Shown here one piece after another: positions 2,842 to 50,048 of a stretch of DNA of 64,000 nucleotides. Source of the stretch: an uncultured Caldisericota bacterium (GTDB taxonomy: Bacteria; Caldisericota; Caldisericia; B22-G15); NCBI GenBank assembly GCA_964640995.1, contig CAZXJJ010000002.1, positions 146,728 through 210,727 of the forward strand, in the 5' to 3' direction. The notes below the pieces were generated by a model that saw only the letters and a program-made list of their open reading frames with translations, was not told the origin of the DNA and searched no databases. The stretch's first letter is position 1. Each line of letters opens with the position of its first letter. The translations under genes and the position numbers were made by a program.

Positions 2842-4065
2842 ATGAAAAAGATAAAATATTTAAAATGTATTCATTGTGGAAGTGAATATGAAGCAACAGA
2901 GGTCAATTATACATGTCCAAAATGTGGTATAGATGGAATTCTCTTTGTTGAACTTGATTATGAAAAAATAAATTTTAATAAAGAAATTTTAAAATATAGA
3001 CCAAATAATATTTTAAGATACCATGAACTTTTTCCTATAAAAGATGTTGATAATTCTCCACCATTAAATGTTGGTATGACACCTCTTTATAAATCAAAAA
3101 GATTAAATGATTTTCTTGGATTAAAAAATTTATATATAAAAGATGATGGTAGAAATCCTACTGCATCATTTAAAGATAGAGCATCATTTATTGTTGTTAA
3201 AAAAGCAATGGAACTTGGCTTTAATTCAATTACAACTGCATCAACTGGCAATGCAGCATCTTCTCTTGCAGGAATTTCAGCAAGTGTTGGTATAAAAACA
3301 TATATATTTGTGCCCGAGACTGCACCAAGAGCAAAAATTGCACAACTCCTCTCTTTTGGTGCAAATGTTTTTGCTGTACAGGGAAGTTATGATGATTGTT
3401 TTGACCTTTGCATACAAGCAAGTGATGAGTTTGGTTGGTATAATAGAAACACTGCTTATAACCCATATACAATTGAAGGCAAAAAGAGTGTTTCATTTGA
3501 AATTTGGGAGCAGATGAATTTTGAAGTTCCAGATAAAATTTTTGTATCAGTTGGAGATGGAGTCATTTATAGCGGAGTTTATAAAGGGTTCTATGATTTA
3601 TATAACTTAAAATTAATTGATAAAATGCCTCAAGTTATTGGTGTACAAGCAGAGGGCTCTTCTCCAATTGTAAAGGCCTATATTGAAAATAAAGAAAAAG
3701 TGGAACCAATCGAAAATCCTAAAACAGTTGCAGATTCAATATGTGTAGGTCATCCAAGAAATGGAAATATGGCTCTAAAATTTGCAAGAAAATATAATGG
3801 AAGTTTTGTTTCTGTTAAAGATGGAGAAATTTTAAATGCAATTCCTCTTCTTGGAAAACTCACTGGTGTATTTGGTGAGCCTGCAGGAGTAACTCCTTTT
3901 GCAGGTTTAATAAAAATGAAAAATGAAAACAAAATAGATGAAAATGAAAAAATTGTTGTAATAATTTCAGGAAATGGATTAAAAGATATTGAATCAGCAA
4001 TAAAAAGCACAGGAGAACCAAATTATATAAAGCTTGATATAAATGAAATAAGAAAATATATTTGA
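2842..4065 (+). CDS. thrC: threonine synthase (PLP-dependent, N-terminal zinc ribbon)
   Basis: N-terminal CxxC...CxxC ribbon (CIHCG...CPKCG); PLP-lysine motif NPTASFKDRASF; glycine-rich PLP-binding region; 407 aa. Confidence 0.7.
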   Translation: MKKIKYLKCIHCGSEYEATEVNYTCPKCGIDGILFVELDYEKINFNKEILKYRPNNILRYHELFPIKDVDNSPPLNVGMTPLYKSKRLNDFLGLKNLYIKDDGRNPTASFKDRASFIVVKKAMELGFNSITTASTGNAASSLAGISASVGIKTYIFVPETAPRAKIAQLLSFGANVFAVQGSYDDCFDLCIQASDEFGWYNRNTAYNPYTIEGKKSVSFEIWEQMNFEVPDKIFVSVGDGVIYSGVYKGFYDLYNLKLIDKMPQVIGVQAEGSSPIVKAYIENKEKVEPIENPKTVADSICVGHPRNGNMALKFARKYNGSFVSVKDGEILNAIPLLGKLTGVFGEPAGVTPFAGLIKMKNENKIDENEKIVVIISGNGLKDIESAIKSTGEPNYIKLDINEIRKYI

Positions 4066-4087
4066 TAAAATAAATTTATTAAAGGAG

Positions 4088-4462
4088 GTGAAAAAGATGG
4101 ATGGATCATTTTGGGAAAAAATTAAAAAAGGTTTGCAAATTAGTGCTGAAAAAACAAAAGAATTTGCAGAAATTGCAAATATTAAAGGCGCAATTCTCAT
4201 TTTAGAGAACAAAAAGGGAGGAAAACTTAAAGAACTTGGTACAAAAGTTTATGACTTTTATAAACAGGGTAAAACAAAAGATGAAATTTTTGAGGCAATA
4301 AATTCTATTTTTGAAGAGATAAAGAAAATAGAAAATGAAATAAAAGAAAGAGAAGAGGAGATTGAAAAAATTAAATCTCAAAAGGATATAAAGGATGAGG
4401 AGGTTAAGAAAATAGAGGAGGAAGTAAAAAAGGAAGTTAAAGAGGAAGAGAAAGAGCAATGA
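4088..4462 (+). CDS. hypothetical Lys/Glu-rich coiled-coil protein
   Basis: 124 aa, strong RBS AAAGGAGGTG upstream; C-terminal half is a KE-rich low-complexity helix (EEIEKIKSQKDIKDEEVKKIEEEVKKEVKEEEKEQ). Confidence 0.35.
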   Translation: MKKMDGSFWEKIKKGLQISAEKTKEFAEIANIKGAILILENKKGGKLKELGTKVYDFYKQGKTKDEIFEAINSIFEEIKKIENEIKEREEEIEKIKSQKDIKDEEVKKIEEEVKKEVKEEEKEQ

Positions 4463-5535
4463 TGAATTATGCCATAAAAAATTTTATTGAACTTTGTAAA
4501 ATTCCCTCTCCTTCAGGAAAAGAAGAAAAAGTAAGAGAAAAAATTTTAGAACTATATAAAGATCTTGGAGAATGGAAAATAGATAAAACAGGAAATATGT
4601 ATTTGAAAGTTGGAAAAGGAGACAAAGCACTTTTATTAAATGCACATATAGATACAGTTCCTGTTGATGGCGATAATATAAATATCATTGTTGAAAATGG
4701 AGTTATCAAGACAGATGGAAAAACAATTTTAGGTGCAGATGACAAATCTGGTGTTATTGCAATTCTTGAAGGTATTAAGAGAAAAAAAGATGAACTTAAA
4801 GGAGTAGTTGACATAGTTTTAACAGTTGAGGAGGAAACTGGACTTAAAGGAGCAAAAAATTTAGATTTATCATTACTTGAAGCAAAAGATGGATTTGTTT
4901 TTGATATGCATAATCCACCAGGTGAAATTGTTACTGAATCACCATATCACAATACTTTTAAATTTTTCATTTATGGTAAAGCTTCCCACGCAGGAGCAGA
5001 ACCTGAAAAAGGAATAAATGCAATTTTACTGTCCTCAAGAGCAATAAATAGAATTAAAATAGGGAAAATTGATGATGAAACAACTGCAAACATTGGAGTT
5101 ATAAAAGGTGGTAGCGCAACAAATGTTGTACCTGATTATGTTGAAATTCATGGTGAAGCAAGAAGTAGAGATGAGAATAAACTTTTAAATTTAACTGATG
5201 AGATTATAAATATTTTTACAGAAGAGGTTGAAAAAGGCGGAGGTAGGTTAGATTATTATTTAAATAGAGAATATAATGGATATAAATTTTCAGAAAATGA
5301 TAAATTAATTTTATTAATAAAAAAAGTTTTTGAATCACTAAATATTAAACCTATTACAAGACCAACTATGGGTGGTTCTGATTCAAACATATTCCATGAA
5401 AAAGGGATAAAAACAATAGTTCTTTCTTGTGGAATGATGAATGTTCATACAAAAGAAGAATATATAAAAATTGAAGATTTAGAAAAAACTATAAATGTTG
5501 TTGAAAAGATAATCGATTTCTACTTTGAGGAATAA
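4459..5535 (+). CDS. M20/M42-family metallopeptidase
   Basis: Metal-ligand motifs NAHIDTVPV and GADDKSGV, and EETGLKG; 358 aa; start overlaps upstream stop. Confidence 0.6.
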   Translation: MMNYAIKNFIELCKIPSPSGKEEKVREKILELYKDLGEWKIDKTGNMYLKVGKGDKALLLNAHIDTVPVDGDNINIIVENGVIKTDGKTILGADDKSGVIAILEGIKRKKDELKGVVDIVLTVEEETGLKGAKNLDLSLLEAKDGFVFDMHNPPGEIVTESPYHNTFKFFIYGKASHAGAEPEKGINAILLSSRAINRIKIGKIDDETTANIGVIKGGSATNVVPDYVEIHGEARSRDENKLLNLTDEIINIFTEEVEKGGGRLDYYLNREYNGYKFSENDKLILLIKKVFESLNIKPITRPTMGGSDSNIFHEKGIKTIVLSCGMMNVHTKEEYIKIEDLEKTINVVEKIIDFYFEE

Positions 5536-6960: not shown

Positions 6961-8086
6961 TGGAGTAGGAGTTGGTGGAGCAAAAGATGCTAAAGAATTT
7001 GGAGATGAGAATAGTAATACATTGCTTAATGTAATAGAAAAAACAGGAATAAAACTTCCAAACTTAACAAACTTTGGGATGTTAAATTTACTTTACAATA
7101 TGAAAATTGAGACTCTATCTTCTTATGGAATTTTAAAAGAAGAATCTCCAGGAAAAGATACAACGACAGGTCATTGGGAATTAATGGGAGTAAAACTCAC
7201 AAAGCCATTTCCAGTTTACCCTAATGGTTTTCCAGATGAAATAATTAAAGAGTTTGAAAAAAGAATAGGAAAAAAGGTTTTATGGAACAAACCAGCATCT
7301 GGAACCGAAATTATAAAAAATTTAGGTGAAGAGCACATCAAAACTGGATATCCAATAGTTTATACTTCTGCTGATTCAGTTTTTCAAATTGCAGCACATG
7401 TTGATCTAATACCTTTAAATGAACTATACAAGATGTGTGAAATAGCAAGGGAAATTCTGAAAGGAGAACACGCTGTTGCAAGAGTAATAGCAAGACCCTT
7501 TGCAGGTGAGATAGGAAAATTTTATAGAACTCCTGATAGAAAAGATTATTCCCTTGAACCTCCAGAAGAAACTCTTCTTGACATTATGATAAAGAAGGGA
7601 TTCAAAACTTTTGGTATTGGAAAAGTATATGATATTTTTGCAAAAAGAGGCTTTTCTCAAATAGTGCATATAGAAAATAACACAGAAAACATGGCAGTTT
7701 TGTTAAAAGCAACAATTGAGGAAAGGGATTATTCTTTAATTTTTACAAACCTTGTTGATTTTGATATGAATTATGGACATAGAAGAGATCTTTGGGGATT
7801 TGCAAATGCTCTACTTGAGTTTGATGGTTTTTTAGGAAATTATTTAAGATGGCTAAAAGATGATGATATTCTAATAATAACAGCAGATCATGGAAATGAC
7901 CCAACATTTTTAAAACATACAGATCATACAAGAGAAAATGTTCCAATTTTTATTTATGGGAAAAATATTAAGAGAAATAATTACATCGGAATTAATAAAT
8001 TTTCTGATCTTAGTGCAACAATAGGTGAAATTTTTGGTCTGAAAACTAACTACGGTAAATCTTTTTTTAAAAAAATTGTGGTATAA
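6929..8086 (+). CDS. deoB: phosphopentomutase
   Basis: N-terminal VILVILDGVGVGG, TTTGHWELMGV, and C-terminal ITADHGNDPT, typical of DeoB in the alkaline-phosphatase superfamily; 385 aa. Confidence 0.8.
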   Translation: MIKRVILVILDGVGVGGAKDAKEFGDENSNTLLNVIEKTGIKLPNLTNFGMLNLLYNMKIETLSSYGILKEESPGKDTTTGHWELMGVKLTKPFPVYPNGFPDEIIKEFEKRIGKKVLWNKPASGTEIIKNLGEEHIKTGYPIVYTSADSVFQIAAHVDLIPLNELYKMCEIAREILKGEHAVARVIARPFAGEIGKFYRTPDRKDYSLEPPEETLLDIMIKKGFKTFGIGKVYDIFAKRGFSQIVHIENNTENMAVLLKATIEERDYSLIFTNLVDFDMNYGHRRDLWGFANALLEFDGFLGNYLRWLKDDDILIITADHGNDPTFLKHTDHTRENVPIFIYGKNIKRNNYIGINKFSDLSATIGEIFGLKTNYGKSFFKKIVV

Positions 8087-8096
8087 TAAAAAATGC

Positions 8097-8449
8097 GGGG
8101 GCGAAAGGAGCTCGACATGGAATGGAGGTTTAAACCAGCAGGTGGGTTTGAGAGAACCCTAAAACTCTCAAAAGACTTAAAATGCCAACACAAATTATGC
8201 TTTTGCAGTAGCATAAGTTCTACTGCCAGTTTGGGAGATTCTGGTCTCCTTGGTCTCTCAAGCTGAGGCGAAAAGGAGACTCGCCTTTATCCTCATCCTC
8301 TGGGATAAAGGTTAAAAATATGAGGATACGCTTCTCTCCTCTGTGCCTGTTCAGAAGAGAGAAGAAGAGAAAGAAATAACAGGCTAAACCTGTAGAAGGT
8401 TTAAACTGAGATTCCATGGACGCGGGTTCAATTCCCGCCGCCTCCACCA
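8097..8449 (+). ncRNA. ssrA: tmRNA (transfer-messenger RNA)
   Basis: GC-rich island in AT-rich DNA. 5' GGGGGCGAAAGG pairs with the 3' acceptor ...GGACGCGGGTTCAATTCCCGCCGCCTCCACCA (tRNA-Ala-like T-arm and CCA). Internal tag frame 8184..8216 GCC AAC ACA AAT TAT GCT TTT GCA GTA GCA TAA encodes ANTNYAFAVA. The 76-aa minus-strand ORF 8220..8450 is spurious. Confidence 0.85.
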
Positions 8450-8455
8450 ATTTAA

Positions 8456-10135
8456 ATGGATATAAAAAAATTAAGTGAATTTATAAAATATCTTGAAATC
8501 TCCTCTTTTTTACATGATATAGGAAAAATTTCTTCTCATTTTTTATTATCAAAAGATAAAGATTTAAACATTAAAGATCAACATGCAGTTTTAATTTTTG
8601 AAGATAAATTAGGAGAAAACTTAAATAAATTTTTAAGAACTCCATTAAGTAAAAAATTTCCAAATTTTAAAGACCTCTTGGAAGAGATTGCGCCTATTAA
8701 TTTTATTTGTTCTCATCATGGTTGTGAAAGATGTAAATTTTCAAATGGATGTAAAAAGTATGATAAAAATTTTTTTATAAAGATACTTCAAATATCAGAT
8801 CGACTTGATTCATCAAATCCACCGAACAGCGGAAAACAACCATTTTATTCTGTCTATATTCAAGACTTTTTTGGAAATGTTAAAAAAATAGATTTTGAAA
8901 GAATTGATTTATTAAGAATAAAATTTTTAAATCTTCTTGATTATTATATTCATAATTTGAATAGAGAAGAGGTTTTTAAAATTTCAAAATTATTTATGGA
9001 AAATGCTTTATCAGAGACAAGAAGTGGAGCAAATGATATAAATTTATACAATCACTCAAAAGCAACATCTTCTGTTTTTAAAATAATTCTTTTTGACTAT
9101 TTCTATTTTGGATTAGAACCTCCATCATCAATCTTTGATGTTGAAATAAAATTTTTAAGAACAAAAGGAGGTTTTAAAAAATTAATAGAAGAAGAAATAT
9201 CATTTGGAAATTTAATTTTTGCTTTAGAGGATTTTGAATATTATATTACAGGAAAAGGGGTAGATAAATTATTTTTAAAGATAAATAGATTAGATGGTAT
9301 TTTTGTTGATGAAATTAATATCAATAAAACAAAAAATAAATATTTTTATCCTATAAATCCGGAGGAAATTTTAAAAACAATTTTTGTAAAAATTCCTGAA
9401 GATATTGGCTTAACTTTTGAAGATATTATAAAGGGAACTATGGAGTTAATTAATTATGGAAGATATAGTGAATTTCGAGAATTAAAATTAAAAATTAAAG
9501 GTGTTAAAAAACATATAAGAAATCTTAAAAGAGGAAATAAAATTAAAGAAGTTCAAAAGAAGATTAAAGAATTTAAAAAATTAGAGAGTAGATTTAATTA
9601 TCTTAAAAAACTATTGAATAAAGATTTTAATCTCAATAATATTGAAAAATTTTTAATGAAAACTCTTGCGCCAATTAGACCCCCCTCAATATCAAAATTT
9701 TCAGAGTATATACTCGATTTAATGAAAAAAAAGAAACTTAATTTAAATGAAATCGCTTTTGAAGTTTTTTTAAAAAAACCACTGACACTATCAAGAATTA
9801 TCCAATATAATTTTGATTTAATTAAATATAGAAAGATAGAAAAAATACCTAAGTTTATTGGAAAAGTTAAATATACAAACAAAAAACCAATAGAAAAATA
9901 TTATGAAATAAAAGAAGTCATAAATGAGAATGGAGATATAATAATAAAATTAAAAAATGGTAAAACTTTAAAAATACCTGTAACATATAACCAAAAAGAG
10001 ATTGATAAATTAAATCTATATTTTATTGGAAAGATAGATAGAAGTGACTCTTTAATATTTCCTTTGGGTAAAGGTAGAAGTTTAATTCATATTACAAAAT
10101 TAAGAGAGAAAGATAAAATAAAATTGATAATTTAA
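8456..10135 (+). CDS. hypothetical protein with N-terminal HD-like metal-binding motif set and Cys4 cluster (orphan, tmRNA-adjacent)
   Basis: 559-aa ORF starting 7 nt after the tmRNA CCA. LHDIGK at aa 19-24 with no upstream His, then H28, H43, CSHHGCERCKFSNGC (aa 85-99) and ISDRLD (about aa 113); the rest is Lys-rich with no motif I recognise and no GGDD. Confidence 0.5.
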   Translation: MDIKKLSEFIKYLEISSFLHDIGKISSHFLLSKDKDLNIKDQHAVLIFEDKLGENLNKFLRTPLSKKFPNFKDLLEEIAPINFICSHHGCERCKFSNGCKKYDKNFFIKILQISDRLDSSNPPNSGKQPFYSVYIQDFFGNVKKIDFERIDLLRIKFLNLLDYYIHNLNREEVFKISKLFMENALSETRSGANDINLYNHSKATSSVFKIILFDYFYFGLEPPSSIFDVEIKFLRTKGGFKKLIEEEISFGNLIFALEDFEYYITGKGVDKLFLKINRLDGIFVDEININKTKNKYFYPINPEEILKTIFVKIPEDIGLTFEDIIKGTMELINYGRYSEFRELKLKIKGVKKHIRNLKRGNKIKEVQKKIKEFKKLESRFNYLKKLLNKDFNLNNIEKFLMKTLAPIRPPSISKFSEYILDLMKKKKLNLNEIAFEVFLKKPLTLSRIIQYNFDLIKYRKIEKIPKFIGKVKYTNKKPIEKYYEIKEVINENGDIIIKLKNGKTLKIPVTYNQKEIDKLNLYFIGKIDRSDSLIFPLGKGRSLIHITKLREKDKIKLII

Positions 10136-10136
10136 T

Positions 10137-11075
10137 TTATTCTCTGCTATAAGGTTTACCAACTGATGCTGGAAATTCAATTTGTTTTTTGAATATCATC
10201 ATTACAAGTAAAACTGAAATAAAAGGAAGCATCAAGAAAAATTGATATGGAATTCTTTGAGAAATTACCTGTAATCTGAATGCTATAACCTCAATCGCTG
10301 CAAATAAAAAGCCACCAAGAATTGCTCTTTGTGGTCTCCAACTTGCAAATATTGCAATTCCAACAGCCATAAAACCTCTTCCTGCTGATATGTCTGGAGT
10401 ATAGGTTCCTGTTATTACAATTGGCAAATAAGCACCAGAAATTCCAATTAAAATTGAACCAATTACAGTTGATAATATTCTTCTTTTTGTAACATTTACA
10501 CCAACAACATCTGCTGCCCTAGGATTTTCTCCAATTGCTCTTGTCTCAAGTCCAATTTTAGTTCTATAATAAAACCACCATGCAAAAATAATTACAAAAT
10601 ATAAAAAATAAACAATTACATCTTGATTTAAAAATGCTGAAACAATTGGTATTCTATTTAAAAAAGGATTGCTTATTGCTGGAGTTTTTGGTGCTCTTGG
10701 AGCAGTGAGTCTTACTCCAATTATTAATTTATAGAAAAGATCTGAAAGTCCTGTTCCTAAAATTACAAGAGATATACCAAGAACAAATTGGTTCACTTTA
10801 AATTTTTCATGAATTAATGAAAGAATCAGTCCAAAAATTCCTCCTAAAATAGCACCAACAATAAAGCCTAAAATTGAATTTTGAGACAAATAACTTACTA
10901 TAAAGCCTAAGGAAGCAGAAGCAAGCATTATACCTTCTCCAGAAACATTAAAAATTCCGGATCTTCCAGCAATAACAATTCCTAAACTTGTTAATGTATA
11001 AACAACTGCGTAAGTAATTGTTTGAGAGATAAATGAATTTATAGCATTTAACATTTTATTTTTTCCTCCTTTCAA
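10137..11075 (-). CDS. ABC transporter permease (nucleoside/BMP-type, second permease)
   Basis: 312-aa polytopic membrane protein in operon with another permease, a tandem-ABC ATPase and a BMP-family binding protein. True start is probably the internal Met at about 11054, abutting the upstream stop. Confidence 0.75.
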   Translation of the reverse strand: MKGGKNKMLNAINSFISQTITYAVVYTLTSLGIVIAGRSGIFNVSGEGIMLASASLGFIVSYLSQNSILGFIVGAILGGIFGLILSLIHEKFKVNQFVLGISLVILGTGLSDLFYKLIIGVRLTAPRAPKTPAISNPFLNRIPIVSAFLNQDVIVYFLYFVIIFAWWFYYRTKIGLETRAIGENPRAADVVGVNVTKRRILSTVIGSILIGISGAYLPIVITGTYTPDISAGRGFMAVGIAIFASWRPQRAILGGFLFAAIEVIAFRLQVISQRIPYQFFLMLPFISVLLVMMIFKKQIEFPASVGKPYSRE

Positions 11076-14818: not shown

Positions 14819-15064
14819 TTGGTAAAGATAAAGTTAAGAAGAATGGGCAAAAAGAAAGAGCCATACTATAGGCTAATTGTTATTGACAGCAGAAAACAGC
14901 CCAAAAGTTCTTATATAGAAAGTTTGGGCAGTTATAATCCACGCTCCAAAGGAGAGGAATTAATGGTAAACCTGGAGCGGTTGGAGTATTGGTTGAGCAA
15001 AGGTGCTCAACCTACAGATTCAGTTAAAAACCTTATTAAAAAGTTGAAGGAGGTTAAACAATGA
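14819..15064 (+). CDS. rpsP: 30S ribosomal protein S16
   Basis: From TTG 14819 the translation is MVKIKLRRMGKKKEPYYRLIVIDSR...; RBS GGAGGTG 6 nt upstream. ORF-track start 14804 is an upstream in-frame TTG. Confidence 0.85.
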   Translation: MVKIKLRRMGKKKEPYYRLIVIDSRKQPKSSYIESLGSYNPRSKGEELMVNLERLEYWLSKGAQPTDSVKNLIKKLKEVKQ

Positions 15065-15291
15065 AGGACTTGCTTGAAGAGATTGTAAAAGCATTGGTTG
15101 ATCATCCAGAGGATGTAAAAGTACAGGCAGTTGAAGGTGAACAGGCTGTTGTTTATGAAGTAAAAGTTAGTGCAGATGATATTGGTAAAGTTATTGGGAA
15201 ACAGGGAAGAACAGCAAACGCTTTAAGAACATTAGTCAGAGCAGCAGCCAGTAAATCAGGTAAGAATGCTATGGTAAACATTCTCTCTTAA
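15061..15291 (+). CDS. KH-domain RNA-binding protein (UPF0109/YlqC-like)
   Basis: 76 aa; KH GxxG loop VIGKQGRTANALR; canonical position after rpsP. Confidence 0.75.
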   Translation: MKDLLEEIVKALVDHPEDVKVQAVEGEQAVVYEVKVSADDIGKVIGKQGRTANALRTLVRAAASKSGKNAMVNILS

Positions 15292-15382: not shown

Positions 15383-15631
15383 ATGGCAAATGCAACAAAC
15401 GCTTCAAATCTTTTAGAAAAACTTGTAAAGATTATTGTTGATTATCCTGAAAAGGTTCAGGTTAAAAAAATTGAAGGTTCATCTACTGTTATTTATGAAG
15501 TTAAGGTTGGTCAAGAGGACATCGGTAAAGTAATTGGGAAACAGGGTAAAACAGCAGAAGCATTAAGAACTATTGTTCAAGCAATTTCAAGAAAATCTGG
15601 AAAAAGCACAATAGTTTCTATTCTTTCCTAG
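15383..15631 (+). CDS. KH-domain RNA-binding protein, tandem paralog
   Basis: 82 aa; same architecture as the upstream KH protein (VIGKQGKTAEALRTIV, ~50% identity by eye); own RBS GGAGG. Confidence 0.7.
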   Translation: MANATNASNLLEKLVKIIVDYPEKVQVKKIEGSSTVIYEVKVGQEDIGKVIGKQGKTAEALRTIVQAISRKSGKSTIVSILS

Positions 15632-22324: not shown

Positions 22325-23427
22325 TTATTTTTCCATAGATATAGTTACTTTTTTAGTTTGTGCCTCCCAAAAAACTTCAGCACCAAATGTTTCAGCAATA
22401 ATTCTTATTGGCACAAAAGTTCTACCCTTTGTTATTTCTGCTTCAGCATCAAGAGTAATTTTTTGGTTATCAATGAGTGCTTCTTTTTTACCAATAAACA
22501 AAGTTATTTTATTATTTTTGTAGAAAATATAAACTTCTTGAACTTTTCCTAACTTCGGATAATAATCTACAGTAGCTCCTAAACCTTCTGATATAAATCT
22601 TAAAGGCACCATTGTTCTTCCAGGTGGCTTTATATGCGGTTCTGCATCAAGAATGTATAGATTTTTATTAATATAGACTTCAACTTTTCCAATAAAGAGT
22701 TCAATTATAGTTTGTTTAACTTTTGGTATAACATTTACTATAACTTTGATCTCTTTTTCTCCAAAATTTCCAATTATTTTTATTTTTCCTTCATTAATTC
22801 CACCTTTAAGACCTGTTGTATTTATATTAATATTTATAAGTCCTGCATTTCCTTCAAATGATTTTGGTTCAACTGAAATCCATGAATTAAGCGAATTAAA
22901 AGAGGCTGAAATTATTCCTCTTCCGGAATTCCAGAAATTAATACTTTTGCTTTGAGAATCACCTTCAAGTATTGAACCAAAATCAAGTAAATCTTTTTCT
23001 AAAGAAATCTAGGCATAGTCTCTTCCTCAGTCATTTTAAATGTATGTTCTTTAACAAAAGGATTATCATTTAATACAGATCTCCAGAGTTCATCTTCAGT
23101 TATAATTAATGGTTTTTCATTTGACCCTTTAAGATGAATTATCATTATCTCATCACCATTTGGTACAAGATAGATATAAAATAGTTCCTTATTTTTTGCA
23201 GCTCTTTCATAAGAAAAATTTACTACTCCATCAAAAGAAAGAACCTCAACCAAAAGGGTTGCCTCTTTTAACTCATTACCATTAGAATCAGCCAAATTGA
23301 CCAGAATACTTGCTTGAGGAATTAATGGTTGATTCGGCCTCTCCTCAATCTTACTTATTATTCCTACATTTTTATATTCATATTCACATCTATATGTAAT
23401 TCCTATTTTCCTATTTTTTCGCCTGAA
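22325..23427 (-). pseudogene. frameshifted or non-canonically initiated ORFs encoding a C-terminal copper-amine-oxidase N-terminal-like domain
   Basis: Frame B is open 23008..22325 but has no ATG/GTG/TTG before Met at 22612; frame A is open 23427..22999 and overlaps B by 7 nt at A/T runs. The C-terminal 95 aa carry CuAO_N-like motifs (MVPLRFISEGLGATV, RTFVPIRIIAETFGAEV). Confidence 0.4.
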
Positions 23428-26192
23428 TCATGAACTCCATTGAAATTTTTATCCTGGAAGAAACCATGATTTATAAAAATTTTATCTATTTTATCTCTTG
23501 TAGATGTATCTATATATTTTCCTCTTAGTGCCTCATAAAGTTCTTTTATATTTTTAATCTTTTTGTCTTTTAATAAGCAAAATAAATCTTGCCATTTTGG
23601 AAATGAAAAATCATCATCATCTTTTTTATTAATTTCTTCATACCATTCATCACTATCAAGTAAATCAAGTAATAATCCTACTGTTCCAAATTCTTCATCT
23701 GATTCAGATACCCTTACTGGGTATTGTTCAATTTTTGGAGGAGAAATATTTGTATTTATTTTTTCATACATAAGTTTTCCATTAACACATTTAATATGGT
23801 TTCTATTAACTTTTTCATAAAGACCAGTTGAAGGGTTCTTATATTCATAAACAGCAGTATCAGATCTAAATTTTTCATTTTCAAGATCATTTTCTTCATT
23901 TTCCCATCTATAGGTTCCATTTCTTTGATTTAATAAATTAGAACAACATGTGCCTTTTAATTTTAAAATTCTTAAAATAATAATTGAAGTTGATTCAGCA
24001 AATCCTTCCATCAGTGAATCGCCAGTTGTGTCATTCATAATACCTCCGTGATTTTTTCTTTTGTTTCTCCCTGTCTCTTCATAAGTTGCTGTTCCAACAA
24101 GAGAGTGATGAAGAAAATGTCCAAATTCATGCCACTCTCTGTTCATTGGTCTATCATTAGAAGTTAAATTGCTGTCAGATGTTTTTATGTTAATTTTTCT
24201 TTCAGTATATCTGTAAAAAGTTCTATCTTCATTACTATAAGCACAAACATTTATTGGTAGCATAGATTTTTCTATCATATCATTACCATTACATCTTTCA
24301 TTTCTAAAGATGCTAAAGGCTTCATCCATATGACAGAAAATTTGAGCAACTGCTCTTGGATCATATCCATTATCCATAAAATCTTTTGGAAAAGTAATGT
24401 CAGTATCTTTACCTATAATTATTTCTCTATTTAATTCCTTTAAAGGGCAAGGTTTATTTTCATTTTTTATATTTACTTTCAAAAAGAAAATTTTCTTGCA
24501 ATCACTATAAGACACTTTAAATTCTTTTGTTTCAAAAAGAACCACAATTACATAATCAAACTTACAATCATTATCATTAAAAGAAAATTTAAATTTTCCT
24601 TCAGAATCAGTAAAGGTTTCCAGGTAATATTTTTTATGTGGAAGATTTGAATCAAAAGAATCATCAAGAGTATAACCTGGTTGTTCTGATGAAATCTTAT
24701 CTTTGAAATAACCTTCTTTTAATTTAAAATCTTTATCAACACTACATTTTGGTTCATAGTTTAAAAACAAAAGAACTTTTGCTCCTTTTAAAACACATTC
24801 TTTATTCTCAATATTTATAAATTTTAAAATCCCATAAATTTCTCTTGTTGTAGGACATACAGAAATTTTTAATTCTTTGATTATCTCTTTAATACAAGGT
24901 GGAGAAGGTGAGATTTGAAATTTAATGTCATATCTTAAATAGAAAGGTGCTTTATTTGGATTATCTTTTATTTCAAAAGTAATAATAATTTCTCTTTCTT
25001 CATTTACAGGTAAATTAAAATTTTCGGGATAAATTTTAATTTCGTATTTTTGTTCATCTTTAGCATCTTTGTCTTTTAATTCAATAATTACCTTAACACT
25101 TATTTTAATATTACCAATGTTTTTTGCTAATATTTTTATACTTTTAGTATTTTCTTTTTCGATATACTCTCCTCCATATTTTATATCAGTGCATGTAGGA
25201 CAAAAAATTATCTCTTCAGGATCAGATATGAATATGTTACATTCAGGTTTTATTATTTCAATAGGATAAATCCATTCACCATCATAATAACCTGTTAAAT
25301 TGATATAATCACCCTTTTTAAATTTACCAAGATCTTCATCTCTAAGTATAACTTTATATCTTTTATTATCCTCTCCATATATTCTCATATTTTTCTCTTT
25401 TTCATTTATTTCCTCAACAATACCTGAAATGGATAATTTTTGTGAAGATTTAGCAATTATTCTTATGCTTCTACTTCCTATCGCACCGTAATAAGTTGAA
25501 TACTTTGTATTAAAATTTATTTCTATTATCTCTTCTCCAGAAATAAAATTCTGAGTTTTAACTTTTATAGAAATAATTTTTATCTCATAAGGAAAAAGTG
25601 TAATATTTTTAGTAAAAATAACACCTATAATTCTTCCCTCAAAATATTCTTTTGAAGAAAAAAGAGTTAAATAACTTTCGCAGGATCCATTCTTTATTTC
25701 AAAGTTTATTGTTTTTTCGCTAAAAGGTAATATTGTTATAGTTATTTCTTTTGGAAGAATATCAAATTCTGGAAATAAAACTTTTAATTTTACTGTTAAA
25801 GTTTTTTCTGATGGAGGTACTGGTGGATTTGGTGGAGTTACTATCCACTCAAATTTTACTTTTATATACCCAACATAATCTTGTGGAATTAAATTTTTAG
25901 ACGAAATAATTACATCTATGGTGATACTTTGAGAAGGACCCACAGTATAAGGGCCAGGAGATTTTATTAAAATCCAACTTTCTAAAGTTGAAAAAGTTAC
26001 ATAAGCACTTAAAGTTTGCGAAAGATTTGTTGCTGTTACTTTGACTGTAGTTTCTTTATCAGGGCATAATGTTATTTCTATAATATCTCCATTTTCAAAT
26101 CTAACATTTCTTTGATCGGTTGTTGATTGAACAATTTGAATATTTATTAAACTTATAGATATTATAAATAAAATTATAATAAATCTTTTTAT
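23403..26192 (-). CDS. large secreted protein with HExxH zinc-metallopeptidase-like motif
   Basis: Frame open from the TGA at 26199-26201 down to 23403 (929 codons). No canonical start until GTG at 25943, yet the upstream in-frame sequence after a GGAGG RBS encodes a signal-peptide-like KRFIIILFIISISLINIQIVQS. Candidate start is ATA at 26190-26192. C-terminal region has REWHEFGHFLHH and a downstream MEGFAE. Confidence 0.5.
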   Translation of the reverse strand: MKRFIIILFIISISLINIQIVQSTTDQRNVRFENGDIIEITLCPDKETTVKVTATNLSQTLSAYVTFSTLESWILIKSPGPYTVGPSQSITIDVIISSKNLIPQDYVGYIKVKFEWIVTPPNPPVPPSEKTLTVKLKVLFPEFDILPKEITITILPFSEKTINFEIKNGSCESYLTLFSSKEYFEGRIIGVIFTKNITLFPYEIKIISIKVKTQNFISGEEIIEINFNTKYSTYYGAIGSRSIRIIAKSSQKLSISGIVEEINEKEKNMRIYGEDNKRYKVILRDEDLGKFKKGDYINLTGYYDGEWIYPIEIIKPECNIFISDPEEIIFCPTCTDIKYGGEYIEKENTKSIKILAKNIGNIKISVKVIIELKDKDAKDEQKYEIKIYPENFNLPVNEEREIIITFEIKDNPNKAPFYLRYDIKFQISPSPPCIKEIIKELKISVCPTTREIYGILKFINIENKECVLKGAKVLLFLNYEPKCSVDKDFKLKEGYFKDKISSEQPGYTLDDSFDSNLPHKKYYLETFTDSEGKFKFSFNDNDCKFDYVIVVLFETKEFKVSYSDCKKIFFLKVNIKNENKPCPLKELNREIIIGKDTDITFPKDFMDNGYDPRAVAQIFCHMDEAFSIFRNERCNGNDMIEKSMLPINVCAYSNEDRTFYRYTERKINIKTSDSNLTSNDRPMNREWHEFGHFLHHSLVGTATYEETGRNKRKNHGGIMNDTTGDSLMEGFAESTSIIILRILKLKGTCCSNLLNQRNGTYRWENEENDLENEKFRSDTAVYEYKNPSTGLYEKVNRNHIKCVNGKLMYEKINTNISPPKIEQYPVRVSESDEEFGTVGLLLDLLDSDEWYEEINKKDDDDFSFPKWQDLFCLLKDKKIKNIKELYEALRGKYIDTSTRDKIDKIFINHGFFQDKNFNGVHDSGEKIGK

Positions 26193-35699: not shown

Positions 35700-36441
35700 A
35701 AAAGCATATAAAAGATGATCCGCTTCCAGACATTATAACATTAATTGCAAAGTGCTTTAAAAGAAAATTTTTTATATCTTTTAACTCTGGTTTCATTTTA
35801 AAAGCAAATTCTTCTAAATCATTTTTTAAATATTGAATAAAATCATCACCAAATAATATTTTATCAAGAACTTTATCAGTAAAAATTTCTTTTTTCTCAA
35901 TTTTATCTATAGCACCATAAACTTCTTTTGTTGAAATTTTTATATTTGGATAAATGACAGAAAAGAAAAACTCTTTATCTTTTGCATAAATTGGAAATAC
36001 TTTTTCGCCTTTATTTTCAATTATTAAGAGTTTTTCTTCTCTTAAAAAAAGATTTACATCAGAACCTAACTCTTTTCCAATTTCAAAAAGTGCTTCTTCT
36101 TGAAGAGGATAGTTAAAAATTTGGTTTAAAGATAAAAGAACTCTTGCGGCATTTGAACTTCCTCCACCAAGACCACTTTCTATCGGAATATTCTTTTTTA
36201 TTCTTATTTTTATTTTTTCTTTTATATTTGTAATTTCAAAAAATTTTTTCTTTGTCTTTTCAACAATATCATTATTAATAAAAGCATCTTCATATAAAAC
36301 TTTATCTTCTCCAAATTCAAAATAAATTTCATCATAAATAGGAATTTTTAAAACTAAACTTTTAATTGAATGATATCCATCTGGAAGTTTTGATAATATA
36401 TCAAGTGTTAAGTTTATTTTCGCTTCTGATAAAAATTTCAT
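35581..36441 (-). CDS. ispE: 4-diphosphocytidyl-2-C-methyl-D-erythritol kinase
   Basis: GHMP-kinase motifs KINLTLDI and PIESGLGGGSSNAA; 286 aa; 3' end overlaps the lgt 3' end by 119 bp (convergent). Confidence 0.8.
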   Translation of the reverse strand: MKFLSEAKINLTLDILSKLPDGYHSIKSLVLKIPIYDEIYFEFGEDKVLYEDAFINNDIVEKTKKKFFEITNIKEKIKIRIKKNIPIESGLGGGSSNAARVLLSLNQIFNYPLQEEALFEIGKELGSDVNLFLREEKLLIIENKGEKVFPIYAKDKEFFFSVIYPNIKISTKEVYGAIDKIEKKEIFTDKVLDKILFGDDFIQYLKNDLEEFAFKMKPELKDIKNFLLKHFAINVIMSGSGSSFICFFNSSHHLFSHFEHLKDFQFQVFLFHALGWEKIYRIDMQK

Positions 36442-37177
36442 ATAAATTTATATATTCTTCAACACTCAAATTTTCTGGTCTTAAATTTAGATCAAGTGAT
36501 AAATCTTCACTTATTAAACTAGATAAAACTTTTTTAATCTTTTTTCTTCTTTTTGAAAAAATCTCTTTTAAAAATTTTTCATAATTTTCAAATTTTTCTT
36601 CCCATAACCTTTTTCTTTTAAAATAAATAAATATAGAATCAACATCGGGTCTTGGATAAAAGTTATTTTTATTGAAAATTTTGATATTCCTCAAATCAAA
36701 AAAAGTTTGTATAAATATTGAAATAGCACCATAACTTTTTGAATTTTCTTTTGATAAAATTCTTTCACCTAACTCCTTTTGTATCATGAAATATCCATCA
36801 ATTAAACCATTAATTTTTGAACATTTTTTTAAAATTTCAGTTGAAGTTGAATATGGAAGATTTGAAAAAAATCTAAATTTTTCAGGAAAATTTTCTTCTT
36901 TTAAAAAATCCATTAATTTTATCTCTATATTTTTATAAAAAATTATATTTTCACATATAATTTCTTTTAATCTCTCATCTATCTCATAAGAAATTACTTT
37001 ATTAACTCTTTTTGCTATTTCTTTTGTTACATCCCCTATTCCAGTTCCGACTTCAATAATTATGTCATCTTCACTAAAATCTGTTAAATTTATTAATTCT
37101 TCTCTATTACCTATGAAAAAATTTTGTCCTAAACTCTTTTTAAATCTAAATTTTTTTAAGAAGTCTTTTTTATTCAA
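36401..37177 (-). CDS. rsmA: 16S rRNA (adenine1518/1519-N6)-dimethyltransferase
   Basis: KKSLGQNFF N-terminal motif and SAM-binding EVGTGIGDVT; 258 aa. Confidence 0.85.
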   Translation of the reverse strand: MNKKDFLKKFRFKKSLGQNFFIGNREELINLTDFSEDDIIIEVGTGIGDVTKEIAKRVNKVISYEIDERLKEIICENIIFYKNIEIKLMDFLKEENFPEKFRFFSNLPYSTSTEILKKCSKINGLIDGYFMIQKELGERILSKENSKSYGAISIFIQTFFDLRNIKIFNKNNFYPRPDVDSIFIYFKRKRLWEEKFENYEKFLKEIFSKRRKKIKKVLSSLISEDLSLDLNLRPENLSVEEYINLYEIFIRSENKLNT

Positions 37178-46613: not shown

Positions 46614-47188
46614 AAAATATGTTCTAATAAAATTTTAATTCCTATTGAAATTAATATCAATCCACCCAAAATTTCTGCTCCTTTTTTAAAGATTTTACCC
46701 AATAAAAAACCAGAATAAACTGAAATCATAGTTAATGTAAAAGTTGTAATACCTATAAAAATTGATGGGAATAAAATTTTTGTTTTAAGAAGAGAAAGAG
46801 AAATACCAACTGCAAATGCATCAATACTTGTTGCTATTGAAAGAAAGAGAAGTGTAATGAATCTATCTGTATTTATTTTGTTTTCACAATCATTTTTGAA
46901 GCTTTCAAAAATCATTTTTGCACCAACAAAAATTAATATAAAAAAGGCAACCCAATGATCATAATCTTTAATAAAACTCAAAAGTTCTCTTCCAATTAAA
47001 TATCCAATAAACACCATTCCAAATTGGAAAAAACCAAATGAGAAAGAAATTTTTAAAGGATAATAAAAATTAAATTTTTTCTTGGTAATTCCACATGAAA
47101 GACCAACTGCAAAAGCATCCATAGAAAGTGCTATTCCAATCAATAAAATTGAAATTAATGTTAAACTGTCTCCATTTAAACTTATCAC
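46610..47188 (-). CDS. mntP: manganese efflux pump MntP (DUF204)
   Basis: Duplicated SMDAFAVG / SIDAFAVG motifs in a 6-TM protein; 192 aa. Confidence 0.75.
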   Translation of the reverse strand: MISLNGDSLTLISILLIGIALSMDAFAVGLSCGITKKKFNFYYPLKISFSFGFFQFGMVFIGYLIGRELLSFIKDYDHWVAFFILIFVGAKMIFESFKNDCENKINTDRFITLLFLSIATSIDAFAVGISLSLLKTKILFPSIFIGITTFTLTMISVYSGFLLGKIFKKGAEILGGLILISIGIKILLEHIL

Positions 47189-47252
47189 TCTTTTTTTCCT
47201 TCCTCTTTATAATTCACTTTATTATTATATAATTTTTAAAGGAGAGTTTATA

Positions 47253-50048
47253 ATGAAAAAAATAATTATTAGTTTTTTATTAATAATATTATTCATTAAG
47301 ATTTTTCCCATAAAGTTTTTAAATTCACAGGATTTAAACAATATTGAATTTTTTCTTCTAAAAGATGAAGAACAAAAAATTGTGACTATTGGAAAAGGGG
47401 AATTTAAAAATTTCTCTTATAATTTATCAACCAAGGATAATTTATTCACATTTATTATTTCAGGAAAGGGCAATTTAATTTTTAAAATAATTTTTAAAGA
47501 AATGGAGAAAGTATTTCCTGAAATAGATGGAGTATTTATATCACCATTTTATATATTAAAAGACAAAGAAGAAAAGTTATTTATGTTTTCTGTTGATTCT
47601 AGTGGTCTACATTACTTTGAAGTAAAAGAAAAAGAAGAAAACTTTGAAATAAATTATAATATATATTCAAATAAGAAAGAGTTGATTAAATTTAGAATAG
47701 TTAAAGTTAATTCAATTTTTGATGCATTTGAAGATTACTATAAATTTTATAAAATTAAAGATAGAAAAATTGATTTAGGAGGCCTGATATTACCTAATAT
47801 CTCTCTAACAAATATTATAAATAATGTTGGAATTGAAAATTTTAATATTAAAGGAAGAATAATTGATCCAAAAGAGCAGTATGCGCCTGAAAGAATACTT
47901 GAGGGTATAAAATATAAAATAAAAAATTTTGTTTTATTTGACCCAATAAAATTGAAGTTTGAAAATATAGATATAAATAAAATAGAAAAGGAGCTATTTT
48001 TTAATGAGAATCCATATTATAAATTAATGGGTATCCAAATTTTAACTTCATCTATAAAAAATAAAGATGGAAGTATTATTAAAATAGAAAAAAAAAGTGA
48101 GCCAACTTTAAAAATTGTTTCAGGTGAAAAAGTTCCAGATTATAAAGAAAATTCAGTTGATACAATAATTTTTTTAAATCCAGAACAAAATTTTTTAAAA
48201 AACAAGGGAATAAGTTCATTTGATATTTATTATTCAAGATACATTTATCCACTAAATATAGCTATAACAATATCAAATAGACAACTTGAAATTAAAGGTG
48301 AAAATGAAGCAAGGTATCATGGTCTTGCCTTAGATTTTTCTGATGTTGAAGATTTTTTTAATTTTGATAAGAAAAAGTTTAATAATAATCCAAAATCATT
48401 TATAGATGGAGAAGTTGCACAATTTTATTGTTCAAATCTATATAATTTTTTAAATAGTTTACAAAAAAATTATCCAGTTCTCTCAATCAATCCAAAATAT
48501 TATCAACTAATAATGAATTCAGATTTAATTTATAAAGAGATTGAAGATTTAAATTATTTAAATAATTTACCTATTGAAAGAGTTATTGTTCCTAATAGAC
48601 CAATTGTCTTTTCATTTAGACTAAAAAATGAAGATATAAATGAAAGTGTTTTAAATAAAATTTTTAAAAACTCTTTAATTTATGGAGTTTATCCAACATT
48701 TTCAAAACCTCAAGATGAACCATATTCAATATGGGATAATGTGGAGAAATTAAAACTTTTGGCTAATTATAAGGATTTTTATGATTTAATAGGAAAAATT
48801 GAATCTAAAGGTTTTATAGGCAAAAGCATCGCAACTATTGAAAATGGATATATATATCAATTTGGAGATTTTCCAGATATTTTTTTTACAATTAATGGAT
48901 ATGGAAAAATTAAAATTGAAAAAAGCGCTCTTGAATCGCAAGGTAATATTTCTATAATAAATCCCCTCAATAATGAAAAAGTTGAATTTTATGAGGAAGG
49001 AAACAACATAATAATAGATTCATGGGGGCTAAATGTTATAAATATAAAAAATGAAAACATCCAAACACAATCTGAAAACCAGAATATATCAAAATTCTCA
49101 AAGTTTGAAAATAAGAAAATTTCAATTTTAATTTTCGTTTCAGTTTTATTTTTTGTATTTTTAAATCTATTATTAAGAAAAATAAACTTGATTATCAATA
49201 TTAAACCAACTTATATTATTTTTACTTTATTAATTTTATCCTTAATCATAAATCAATTTTTGGGGTTATCATCTCCATTTTATATTCTATTATTAATAGG
49301 AATATATTTTATTTTTACCTCAACTTTTTCTTCACTTACAAAAAAATCTTTTCTATTAAATTTTTCTCTTGTTTTTCTATTATCCTCTCTTATCTTTTAC
49401 ATTTTAAATGGTAATCAAGCAATTTTTTCGCCACCATATTATCTTTTTTACAACACTTATTTTATTTCTATTATATTAACCTATTTTGTTTTTATCTTTT
49501 ATCATTTTGAATGGAAAAAGATTTATGATATATTAATTTTCTCAACAATTTTAATTGTCATTTTAATTTCAAATCCAACAAGAAATCCATTTTATTCGCC
49601 TCCAATTGATTATACATTTTTAATATCATCTCTAATTCTTGCGCTTTTTATTTTCTTACTATCTAAAAATTTATTAAAAATTATATTATTTTCTTTATTT
49701 GCTTTTCTTATCATTAATTATATTTTCATAGATAAAATCTATTTTTATCTTCTTTCAAAAGAAATATTTATTTCAGTTGATTTTATTCAAAATTTAACTT
49801 TACTTTTTGCTCTTTCAATTATTTTTATATATTTTTCAAAATCAAAATTTAAAACTAAAACAAAATTGGTTTATAACTTTTTAATAATATTTTTTATAGT
49901 TGTATCAATATACTTAAATAGAATTCTTTTGGTCTCTCCCAATATTTTTGGTATTATATCAAGCATAATAAAGTTAATTTTTTATATAATTTTAATAATA
50001 TATTTGATTTTCTTTGTTGAATCAACATTTATTAAAAAGGAGGAGTAA
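47253..50048 (+). CDS. large membrane protein: signal peptide, ~650-aa extracytoplasmic domain, C-terminal polytopic domain
   Basis: Start ATG 47253 (MKKIIISFLLIILF) with RBS AAAGGAGAG; C-terminal ~300 aa has about 10 hydrophobic helices. ORF-track start 47082 is an extension into mntP. Confidence 0.5.
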   Translation: MKKIIISFLLIILFIKIFPIKFLNSQDLNNIEFFLLKDEEQKIVTIGKGEFKNFSYNLSTKDNLFTFIISGKGNLIFKIIFKEMEKVFPEIDGVFISPFYILKDKEEKLFMFSVDSSGLHYFEVKEKEENFEINYNIYSNKKELIKFRIVKVNSIFDAFEDYYKFYKIKDRKIDLGGLILPNISLTNIINNVGIENFNIKGRIIDPKEQYAPERILEGIKYKIKNFVLFDPIKLKFENIDINKIEKELFFNENPYYKLMGIQILTSSIKNKDGSIIKIEKKSEPTLKIVSGEKVPDYKENSVDTIIFLNPEQNFLKNKGISSFDIYYSRYIYPLNIAITISNRQLEIKGENEARYHGLALDFSDVEDFFNFDKKKFNNNPKSFIDGEVAQFYCSNLYNFLNSLQKNYPVLSINPKYYQLIMNSDLIYKEIEDLNYLNNLPIERVIVPNRPIVFSFRLKNEDINESVLNKIFKNSLIYGVYPTFSKPQDEPYSIWDNVEKLKLLANYKDFYDLIGKIESKGFIGKSIATIENGYIYQFGDFPDIFFTINGYGKIKIEKSALESQGNISIINPLNNEKVEFYEEGNNIIIDSWGLNVINIKNENIQTQSENQNISKFSKFENKKISILIFVSVLFFVFLNLLLRKINLIINIKPTYIIFTLLILSLIINQFLGLSSPFYILLLIGIYFIFTSTFSSLTKKSFLLNFSLVFLLSSLIFYILNGNQAIFSPPYYLFYNTYFISIILTYFVFIFYHFEWKKIYDILIFSTILIVILISNPTRNPFYSPPIDYTFLISSLILALFIFLLSKNLLKIILFSLFAFLIINYIFIDKIYFYLLSKEIFISVDFIQNLTLLFALSIIFIYFSKSKFKTKTKLVYNFLIIFFIVVSIYLNRILLVSPNIFGIISSIIKLIFYIILIIYLIFFVESTFIKKEE

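Follow-up and report, generated by a model that had tools for sequence, protein, structure and literature searches.

A 64,000-nucleotide stretch of DNA from an uncultured Caldisericota bacterium (assembly GCA_964640995.1, contig CAZXJJ010000002.1, positions 146,728 to 210,727; hereafter the window) carries, immediately behind the gene for transfer-messenger RNA (tmRNA, ssrA), an open reading frame (ORF) for a protein of 559 amino acids (aa) in which Pfam detects nothing significant. The analysis favours, at a probability of roughly 0.6, the reading of this protein as a guide-independent, stand-alone and miniaturised Cas10c of the Csx11 branch, which would retain its HD nuclease and be expressed from the 3' trailer of ssrA. 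The two genes and the spacer between them are arranged as follows.

8097-8449, plus strand: tmRNA (ssrA), tag ANTNYAFAVA*, CCA encoded (ARAGORN; Rfam RF00023)
8450-8455, plus strand: 6-nucleotide (nt) spacer ATTTAA, holding an in-frame TAA, without Shine-Dalgarno sequence, terminator or room for a promoter
8456-10135, plus strand: gene for the miniaturised solo Cas10c/Csx11-like protein, 559 aa, ATG start

The in-frame TAA directly precedes the ATG, and a longer frame is thereby ruled out. The tmRNA scores 162 bits against Rfam RF00023 (E 3e-64, gathering score 47), and the ATG is the seventh base past its CCA, just as had been stated in the original prediction, which was made from the letters of the window alone.

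Homology to Cas10c is first detected in the N-terminal ~230 residues, which match both the PADLOC model of Cas10c, the III-C large subunit (E 5e-18, model positions 12-212 of 785), and the TIGR02682 model of Csx11 (E 1e-10, 40.6 bits against a cutoff of 249, model positions 16-240 of 1007). While no full-length match to Cas10 family models was obtained, profile-profile comparison recovers collinear C-terminal segments. When the solo family (alignment A3, 25 sequences) was compared by hhalign with 20 full-length Cas10c-like proteins (alignment A4), the following segments were aligned.

Window residues 2-274 with Cas10c 7-317: probability 100, E 4e-48
Window residues 285-465 with Cas10c 446-579: probability 84.5, E 7e-6 (reversed control E 0.12)
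Window residues 465-559 with Cas10c 689-853: probability 97.5, E 5e-12 (reversed control E 0.38)

As judged by these alignments, the window protein is collinear with Cas10c throughout, including the ~340 aa that follow the HD domain; the original prediction had recognised no motif in the last ~430 aa. The AlphaFold2 (AF2) model of the protein reached a pLDDT of 92 and a pTM of 0.91 with an alignment widened by distant family members, a Caldisericia-only alignment having given a pLDDT of 61 and a pTM of 0.44. Foldseek comparison of this model with the PDB returned Csm1 as all six best matches, and a PDB sequence search with the family profile returned noise only. A resemblance of the C-terminal barrel to the TOBE domains of ModE and MalK (Foldseek E about 1) was not significant and was left unused. 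The domains deduced from the model and the profile comparison are listed below.

8456-9115, plus strand: Cas10-type (permuted) HD nuclease domain, aa 1-220
9128-9355, plus strand: first Palm/RRM-like alpha-beta domain, aa ~225-300, without cyclase residues
9356-9850, plus strand: helical region, aa ~301-465, a long hairpin (helices 321-359 and 363-386) followed by a bundle to ~460 (AF2 model, alignment A3, hhalign)
9851-10132, plus strand: C-terminal beta-barrel, aa 466-559, eight strands (471-557), pLDDT >90 (also hhalign)

In the helical region H353 is invariant and N356, P409 (of PIRPPS) and R447 are nearly so, and the barrel ends in the motif L-I-H-I-x-x-L-x-x-x-D-x-I. Several parts of Cas10c have no counterpart in the window protein, namely residues ~318-445, which hold a CxxC...CxxC Zn finger whose cysteines (C398, C401, C416 and C419) are invariant in Cas10c, and residues ~580-688, Palm2 core and C-terminal ~150 residues (helical domain). 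The long solos P0064, P0067, P0072 and P0075 still have the motif SP..F..VPA...FGKV.GRLP of the Palm2 core, which has been deleted in the window lineage. Neither GGDD nor GGDE nor GDD occurs in the 559-aa protein.

The HD motif lies at the extreme N-terminus: residues 1-19 contain no His, LHDIGK occupies residues 19-24, and H28, H43, a Cys/His cluster and ISDRLD (113-118) follow, all as listed in the original prediction, until the His of a conserved 'ND-x-x-L-x-x-HS' closes the domain. Makarova et al. (2011, PMC3150331) described this motif order for type III Cas10, whose HD is permuted, and the window protein shows each of its elements, from the circularly permuted N-terminal HD through H, HH and D to the displaced His at the domain's C-terminal end. 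Across the family, H20, D21, G23, K24, H43, H87, H88, D115, Q128, R189, D194 and H200 are invariant; among the solos of 22-31% identity, so are F29, K33, D41, L111, R154 and H353. The HD-site residues map one-to-one onto H25, D26, K29, H53, H101, D117, Q134, D208 and H214, which are invariant in operon-borne Cas10c, and onto N207, which is nearly so; conversely, no HD residue that is invariant in bona fide Cas10c varies in the solos. The predicted metal-binding and catalytic constellation of the HD domain is complete, and its chemistry has probably been retained.

Generic HD, HD_5 and HDOD models of Pfam (PF01966 and relatives) gave no match to the protein even at E <= 10, and models of the Cas3 HD domain stay below threshold (Pfam Cas3_HD, E 0.088, 13.3 bits against 23.1; TIGR01596, 13.5 bits against 43.45); neither a helicase domain nor a helicase neighbour, as for Cas3, was found. 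The profile searches proposed with the original prediction matched Cas10c/Csx11 at the N-terminus and no generic HD phosphohydrolase, and the likeness to the permuted HD of Cas10/Csm1 that it had suspected is borne out by the motif order.

A further feature of this domain surrounds the HH motif.

8708-8752, plus strand: Cys cluster C85-S-H87-H88-G-C90-E-R-C93-x5-C99, aa 85-99

C85, C90, C93 and C99 are the only four cysteines of the protein. This Cys4 cluster is found in most solos, but neither bona fide Cas10c nor the P0067/72/75 branch has it; AF2 confidence is lower here (pLDDT 59). The cluster is probably a metal site, either Zn or Fe-S.

Comparison with known systems places the protein closest in detail to the Csx11/III-C Cas10 (PADLOC Cas10c PDLC01314; TIGR02682). 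Both have the same permuted HD with the same invariant residues, collinear parts, the motif E-x-P-L-G-N-x-I-Y in the first Palm-like domain, the helical-region motifs, and a C-terminal barrel with L-x-H-x3-I-x-K-G-D. Both also lack an active cyclase, the Csx11/III-C branch having been termed 'inactivated Cas10 (Csx11 subfamily)' (Makarova et al. 2011, PMC3150331). The window protein differs in its length (~560 aa versus ~1000 aa), in the Cys4 cluster gained within the HD domain, and in its surroundings, since in the loci examined the solo gene, unlike that of III-C Cas10, never adjoins RAMP, Cas6, Cas1 or Cas2 genes or arrays. Identity to Csm1 and Cmr2 of types III-A and III-B (PDB 6ifk_A, 6mua_A, 9x25_B and 6s6b_K) is 12-14%; these proteins have an active GGDD cyclase and work only in CRISPR RNA (crRNA) complexes.

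A Cas10 fragment outside CRISPR-Cas is not without precedent. In Panoptes, the mCpol protein consists of the Palm/cyclase alone; it synthesises 2'3'-c-di-AMP and has a 2TM-beta effector as its partner, near CBASS (PMC12657230). Like the solo, it is a Cas10 fragment used outside CRISPR-Cas, and it is thereby a precedent for exaptation. Yet it represents the opposite half of Cas10, whereas the solo represents the HD half, without cyclase, conserved partner gene or defence-island context. Given that Zn finger, Palm2, cas operon and full-length model match are all missing, the window protein does not count as a Cas10 operationally, yet it is a clear homologue.

The genomic surroundings agree with a stand-alone gene. 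No RAMP, Cas6, Cas1/2 or other cas gene was found within about 6-10 kb in more than 30 loci from several phyla, the solo gene lying outside any cas operon (Cas5/Cas7 RAMPs with or without Cas6, Cas1-Cas2 and an array), and the family shows no conserved partner gene in the loci compared. In the window itself, no CRISPR array was detected by TRF and a search for short-distance direct repeats, and no cas or defence match was found among the unannotated ORFs; the absence of GGDD, cas gene and array noted in the original prediction is confirmed by these scans and the motif check. A PADLOC match to 'mad2' at 36401-37174 is RsmA/KsgA and no defence gene.

The genes beside the solo differ by lineage: ssrA in that of the window, a CPBP protease in another Caldisericia clade. 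In Caldisericales (L009, L016-L022, L024-L027) the gene directly follows lipS1-lipS2 (NF053742, E 3e-81; NF053743, E 6e-94), its start overlapping the lipS2 stop in most of these loci; this adjacency and the Cys4 cluster may hint at an Fe-S connection or at operon hitch-hiking. A link to lipoyl synthase was set aside as a lineage-specific operon arrangement. In loci of Coprothermobacterota and Ca. Lithacetigena/Psychracetigena, as well as in L006, a tRNA-Gln(CTG) gene lies divergent from the solo, about 60-260 nt away (L006 9668-9741; L023 5647-5720; L028 146-219; L029 5825-5898; L033 717-790); after ssrA, this is a second and independent case of a tRNA-like gene beside the solo.

In an unrooted neighbour-joining tree built from the 298 N-terminal columns that the proteins share, the solos group together as one clan, apart from both the full-length and the split operon-borne forms, in 297 of 300 bootstraps. 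The full-length comparison proteins are genuine Cas10s: P0078, which matches the entire Cas10c model (E 2e-145), and P0209 lie, as do the split P0162 and P0090, in operons with RAMPs, Cas6, reverse transcriptase (RT), Cas1 and Cas2. Because the full architecture is found in the nearest relatives and in every outgroup Cas10, parsimony suggests that a Csx11-like Cas10 gave rise to the solos by reduction.

The split forms indicate a possible route. In two type III operons (L035 4161-7225 and L036 2211-4895), a gene for ~550 aa comprising HD and Palm1 is followed by a separate gene for 432 or 242 aa, which may encode the absent C-terminal half. These N-terminal subunits (P0162 in L035; P0090 in L036/L037) resemble the solo in size (548-559 aa) and have a homologous HD and Palm1 module (hhalign E 2e-21 and 1e-26); they are flanked by the cas genes named above and fall outside the solo clan. 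The N-terminal half can therefore exist as a separate polypeptide, and the split Cas10 of type III operons is a plausible evolutionary intermediate toward the solo form.

The gene had been described as an orphan, a term that no longer applies, as the protein search returned 59 homologues of 48-97% identity, 57 with lengths of 528-559 aa and two truncated. Those that are named come from Caldisericia/Caldiserica metagenome-assembled genomes, and every annotation is 'hypothetical'. A protein search with a wider profile recovered almost exclusively the same Caldisericia proteins, together with one new full-length Cas10 (P0209). When 1.8 billion representative proteins were searched exhaustively with the profile, the matches fell into three tiers. 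The first is the Caldisericia family itself. The second comprises proteins of 468-706 aa (E 1e-51 to 1e-30), several of which align across residues 3-458; they are 22-31% identical to the window protein, are again all 'hypothetical', and belong to Caldisericales (including Caldisericum), Coprothermobacterota, Candidatus Eremiobacterota and Ca. Lithacetigena/Psychracetigena (Lithacetigenota). The third consists of proteins of ~1000 aa that match residues ~8-220 only and are genuine Cas10s.

Within the window lineage the position of the gene is fixed. Upstream of the tmRNA lies the phosphopentomutase gene deoB (TIGR01696, 423 bits, cutoff 341), preceded by XerD (TIGR02225, 351 bits, cutoff 330), and downstream a Bmp-type ABC transporter operon (Pfam Bmp, BPD_transp_2 and ABC_tran in the syntenic locus L001) converges on the gene, so that both neighbours had been correctly named in the original prediction. 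The stop codons of the mini-Cas10 and of the convergent ABC permease are 1 nt apart (10133-10139), and no terminator-like hairpin was seen between them. The order XerD-deoB-tmRNA-gene is kept in loci whose homologues are 76%, 57% and 50% identical and in four further species-level genomes, and the tmRNA adjoins the gene in all nine homologue-derived loci that include upstream DNA. For a non-circular test, metagenome contigs were probed with a 34-nt pattern taken from the tag-coding part of the tmRNA alone. This yielded 12 loci, one of which is the window's own contig (FMJZ01051018.1) and another of which extends just 92 nt beyond the tmRNA and is not evaluable; in 11 of the 11 evaluable loci the gene lies directly 3' of the tmRNA. 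The junction stays constant although the partners on either side differ: on the downstream side a UbiE-like methyltransferase (L004, L013 and L015) can take the place of the Bmp ABC transporter, and in L045 an ORF for a 452-aa lipoprotein-like product (3242-4600) stands between deoB and the tmRNA with the tmRNA-gene junction unchanged.

Features of a mobile element were looked for around and beyond this junction. No second copy of the ssrA 3' end, not even one with up to 3 mismatches, occurs in the 64-kb window, so that the downstream partial repeat which the original prediction had proposed to seek does not appear there; no att-like repeat flanks the gene; and no integrase lies downstream, the sole recombinase being the conserved XerD beyond deoB. 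No phage, plasmid or viral relatives were found by tblastn against INPHARED phages and PLSDB plasmids, by pattern-plus-tblastn searches of IMG/VR, or by a BFVD fold search. Values of dN/dS in unsaturated pairs are 0.11-0.22, which indicates purifying selection. Because the tmRNA junction is fixed and neither att repeats nor mobile-element relatives are found, the solo gene is a vertically inherited, fixed chromosomal gene of Caldisericota and a few neighbouring phyla rather than mobile cargo. Close homologues at the same locus in all related genomes, with a housekeeping annotation, had been named beforehand as grounds for refuting the original prediction; homologues are indeed present there, and all of them are annotated as 'hypothetical'.

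With respect to expression, a single promoter-like element lies upstream of the ORF.

8079-8087, plus strand: extended -10 element TGGTATAAT of ssrA, overlapping the deoB stop codon, invariant in four aligned loci

This element ends 9 nt upstream of the tmRNA 5' end. Scanning revealed no promoter- or terminator-like site between the tmRNA and the ATG, and the 6-nt spacer, whose length is the same in L001, L004 and L013, holds no Shine-Dalgarno sequence. Because the only promoter-like element is the ssrA -10 and the spacer has neither promoter nor terminator nor Shine-Dalgarno sequence, the tmRNA precursor probably carries the ORF as its 3' trailer, to be translated after 3' processing from an mRNA with no leader or almost none. 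Elsewhere in the window, TATAAT occurs 7-11 nt before the ATG, with no Shine-Dalgarno sequence, at the gene starts 2842, 43793(-), 46323(-), 54040(-) and 61916, and about half of the window genes carry a GGAGG-type Shine-Dalgarno sequence; this pattern suggests that leaderless translation is used in the host organism. Nor does the gene have an upstream region of its own in other lineages, where its beginning overlaps the final part of a lipS2, DUF4129 or CPBP protease gene.

Together, these observations lead to the following proposal. A Cas10c would have lost its Zn finger, its second Palm (cyclase) core and its C-terminal helical domain. Four parts would remain in unchanged order: the permuted HD, the first Palm-like domain, a portion of the helical middle, and the C-terminal beta-barrel. 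Transcription would start at the ssrA promoter, maturation of the tmRNA 3' end would free the mRNA of the ORF, and translation would be leaderless or nearly so. By analogy with the HD domain of Cas10, the protein would cleave single-stranded nucleic acid in a divalent-metal-dependent manner, acting without a crRNA guide and without cyclic-oligoadenylate signalling, and the helical hairpin and the beta-barrel may serve oligomerisation, substrate binding or regulation. As for its biological role, the point on which the analysis is weakest, an exapted host function is favoured by vertical inheritance, fixed synteny, core-gene neighbourhoods and the lack of relatives on mobile elements. The original prediction of a single-gene nuclease of defence or mobile origin thus holds insofar as the protein is stand-alone, Cas10-derived and a predicted nuclease, and fails as to mobile origin, no mobile relatives having been found.

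Several points weigh against this proposal. The homology of the middle segment is just moderate. Homology, domain map, conservation and synteny are direct observations, whereas nuclease activity, substrate, co-transcription and biological role are inferred from them. In known Cas10 proteins the HD nuclease is activated by the crRNA complex, which is missing here, and HD domains can be phosphohydrolases too, so that sequence alone cannot settle the substrate. What was surveyed is a set of loci rather than whole genomes, and cas genes may be present at other genomic sites. The spacer of L002 and L010-12 measures 27-29 nt, with a TATAAT/TATAAA-like A+T-rich box ~11 nt before the ATG; these sublineages may use a leaderless promoter of their own, so that co-transcription with ssrA is not necessarily universal, and the coupling to the tmRNA may be mere economical gene packing in a small A+T-rich genome. 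Finally, the gene diverges faster than all its neighbours (76% versus 81-94% identity in one comparison, 50% versus 61-75% in another) and its G+C content is 21-23% as against 28-32% in the flanks, and both properties are no less expected of an accessory or defence gene than of a housekeeping gene.

The last point leads directly to a different role for the same solo mini-Cas10 HD nuclease, in which it would be an innate anti-phage defence effector that degrades, as a single gene product, the nucleic acid of the invader or the host, and its CRISPR ancestry would be the reason for its retention. Its ancestor was a defence protein, and mCpol of Panoptes (PMC12657230) provides a precedent for a Cas10 fragment in non-CRISPR defence; together with the fast divergence and the low G+C content, this ancestry leaves such a role open, although we consider it rather unlikely. 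There is no defence island, the neighbours being deoB, XerD, ssrA, lipoyl synthase, POR and tRNA genes; nor is there a conserved partner or sensor gene, or any relative in the phage, plasmid and viral data searched. Moreover, the position is kept in genomes whose homologues are as little as 48% identical, and members from different phyla form one monophyletic family, unlike the patchy distribution of island-borne defence genes.

The substrate might alternatively be a nucleotide or signalling molecule, with the protein acting as an HD phosphohydrolase in keeping with the local nucleoside salvage (NUDIX, deoB and the Bmp-type ABC transporter). Many members of the HD superfamily are phosphohydrolases, and the neighbours in the window lineage are nucleoside and nucleotide enzymes. 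However, the generic Pfam HD model is unmatched and the only matches are to Cas3/Cas10-type HD models, while the whole protein, nucleic-acid-complex domains included, is collinear with Cas10c. The salvage context, too, is lineage-specific, with the methyltransferase in L004, L013 and L015 and lipS1-lipS2, POR or tRNA-Gln in other clades; a nucleoside-salvage link was rejected as a general explanation, this context being confined to part of one lineage. A phosphohydrolase is accordingly a distinctly improbable assignment.

Little likelihood attaches to a functional fusion with ssrA, in which the nuclease would take part in ribosome rescue or RNA quality control, for example in destroying the damaged mRNAs freed by trans-translation or in processing the tmRNA precursor. 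The sole basis for tying the protein to trans-translation or tRNA-like RNAs is the invariant ssrA coupling together with the tRNA-Gln adjacency in other phyla.

It is similarly very unlikely that the protein serves as large subunit in a dispersed type III system, with the genes for Cas5, Cas7, Cas11 and crRNA elsewhere in the genome. Split Cas10 genes of ~550 aa do occur inside real type III operons (P0162, P0090), and many III-C loci lack arrays (PMC12669027). Against this, no RAMP or cas gene was found in the more than 30 loci surveyed, the solos form a clan apart from operon-borne split and full-length forms, and the Zn finger, Palm2 core and C-terminal helical domain are deleted. In solved Csm and Cmr complexes, the Zn finger, Palm2 core and C-terminal helical domain of Cas10 contact Cas5 and Cas11.

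The recent insertion that the original prediction had proposed, a single-gene nuclease of mobile origin whose integration at the tmRNA 3' end would have split a nucleoside-salvage locus, can be given almost no weight: tmRNA 3' ends are known integration sites, the gene has a G+C content below that of its flanks and is 'hypothetical' in all databases, but its likeness to ssrA 3'-end genomic islands is one of position only, given the single-copy ssrA 3' end, the absence of att repeat, downstream integrase, mobile-element relatives and presence/absence polymorphism, and a junction that is occupied in all evaluable tmRNA-anchored and all homologue-derived loci and survives changes on the deoB side (L045) as well as on the transporter side (L004, L013, L015).

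Two further observations concern other parts of the window. Tandem genes for KhpA-like KH-domain proteins (15061-15291 and 15383-15631) lie between rpsP and ylqD-rimM-trmD, and this duplication is kept in L001 and L002. Two large ORFs, 23403-25943 (-) and 47082-50048 (+), encode 846 and 988 aa and have no Pfam or PADLOC match.

In the favoured reading, then, the window gene encodes a stand-alone mini-Cas10c. The identification is solid and unexpected for CRISPR evolution, and the function is inferred. The literature searched, including searches for Caldisericum together with tmRNA, yielded no account of a stand-alone Cas10 in which the HD nuclease is retained and the cyclase is gone; what appears to be new is a miniaturised, CRISPR-independent Cas10c, whereas mCpol, the Palm/cyclase half, was known before. 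The 2025 classification of CRISPR systems treats profile matches outside cas islands as false positives, and the very diverged III-I Cas10 is described there solely within cas loci (PMC12669027).

If the protein is indeed active and independent of a guide, it would raise the questions of how the HD site of Cas10 is regulated when no crRNA complex is present, what the smallest set of Cas10 domains is that can fold and function by itself, and whether type III effectors have been a source of host nucleases in deep-branching bacteria. Should the less likely role in ribosome rescue be true, a CRISPR effector domain would have been recruited into core translation surveillance. The 6-nt coupling to ssrA would in turn be a clean natural case of a protein-coding mRNA made as the trailer of a stable RNA. 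Solo Cas4 and the Cas1 of casposons are other Cas proteins that left CRISPR-Cas, and such CRISPR-free Cas proteins illustrate how immune modules arise from ordinary functions of the cell and degenerate into them again.

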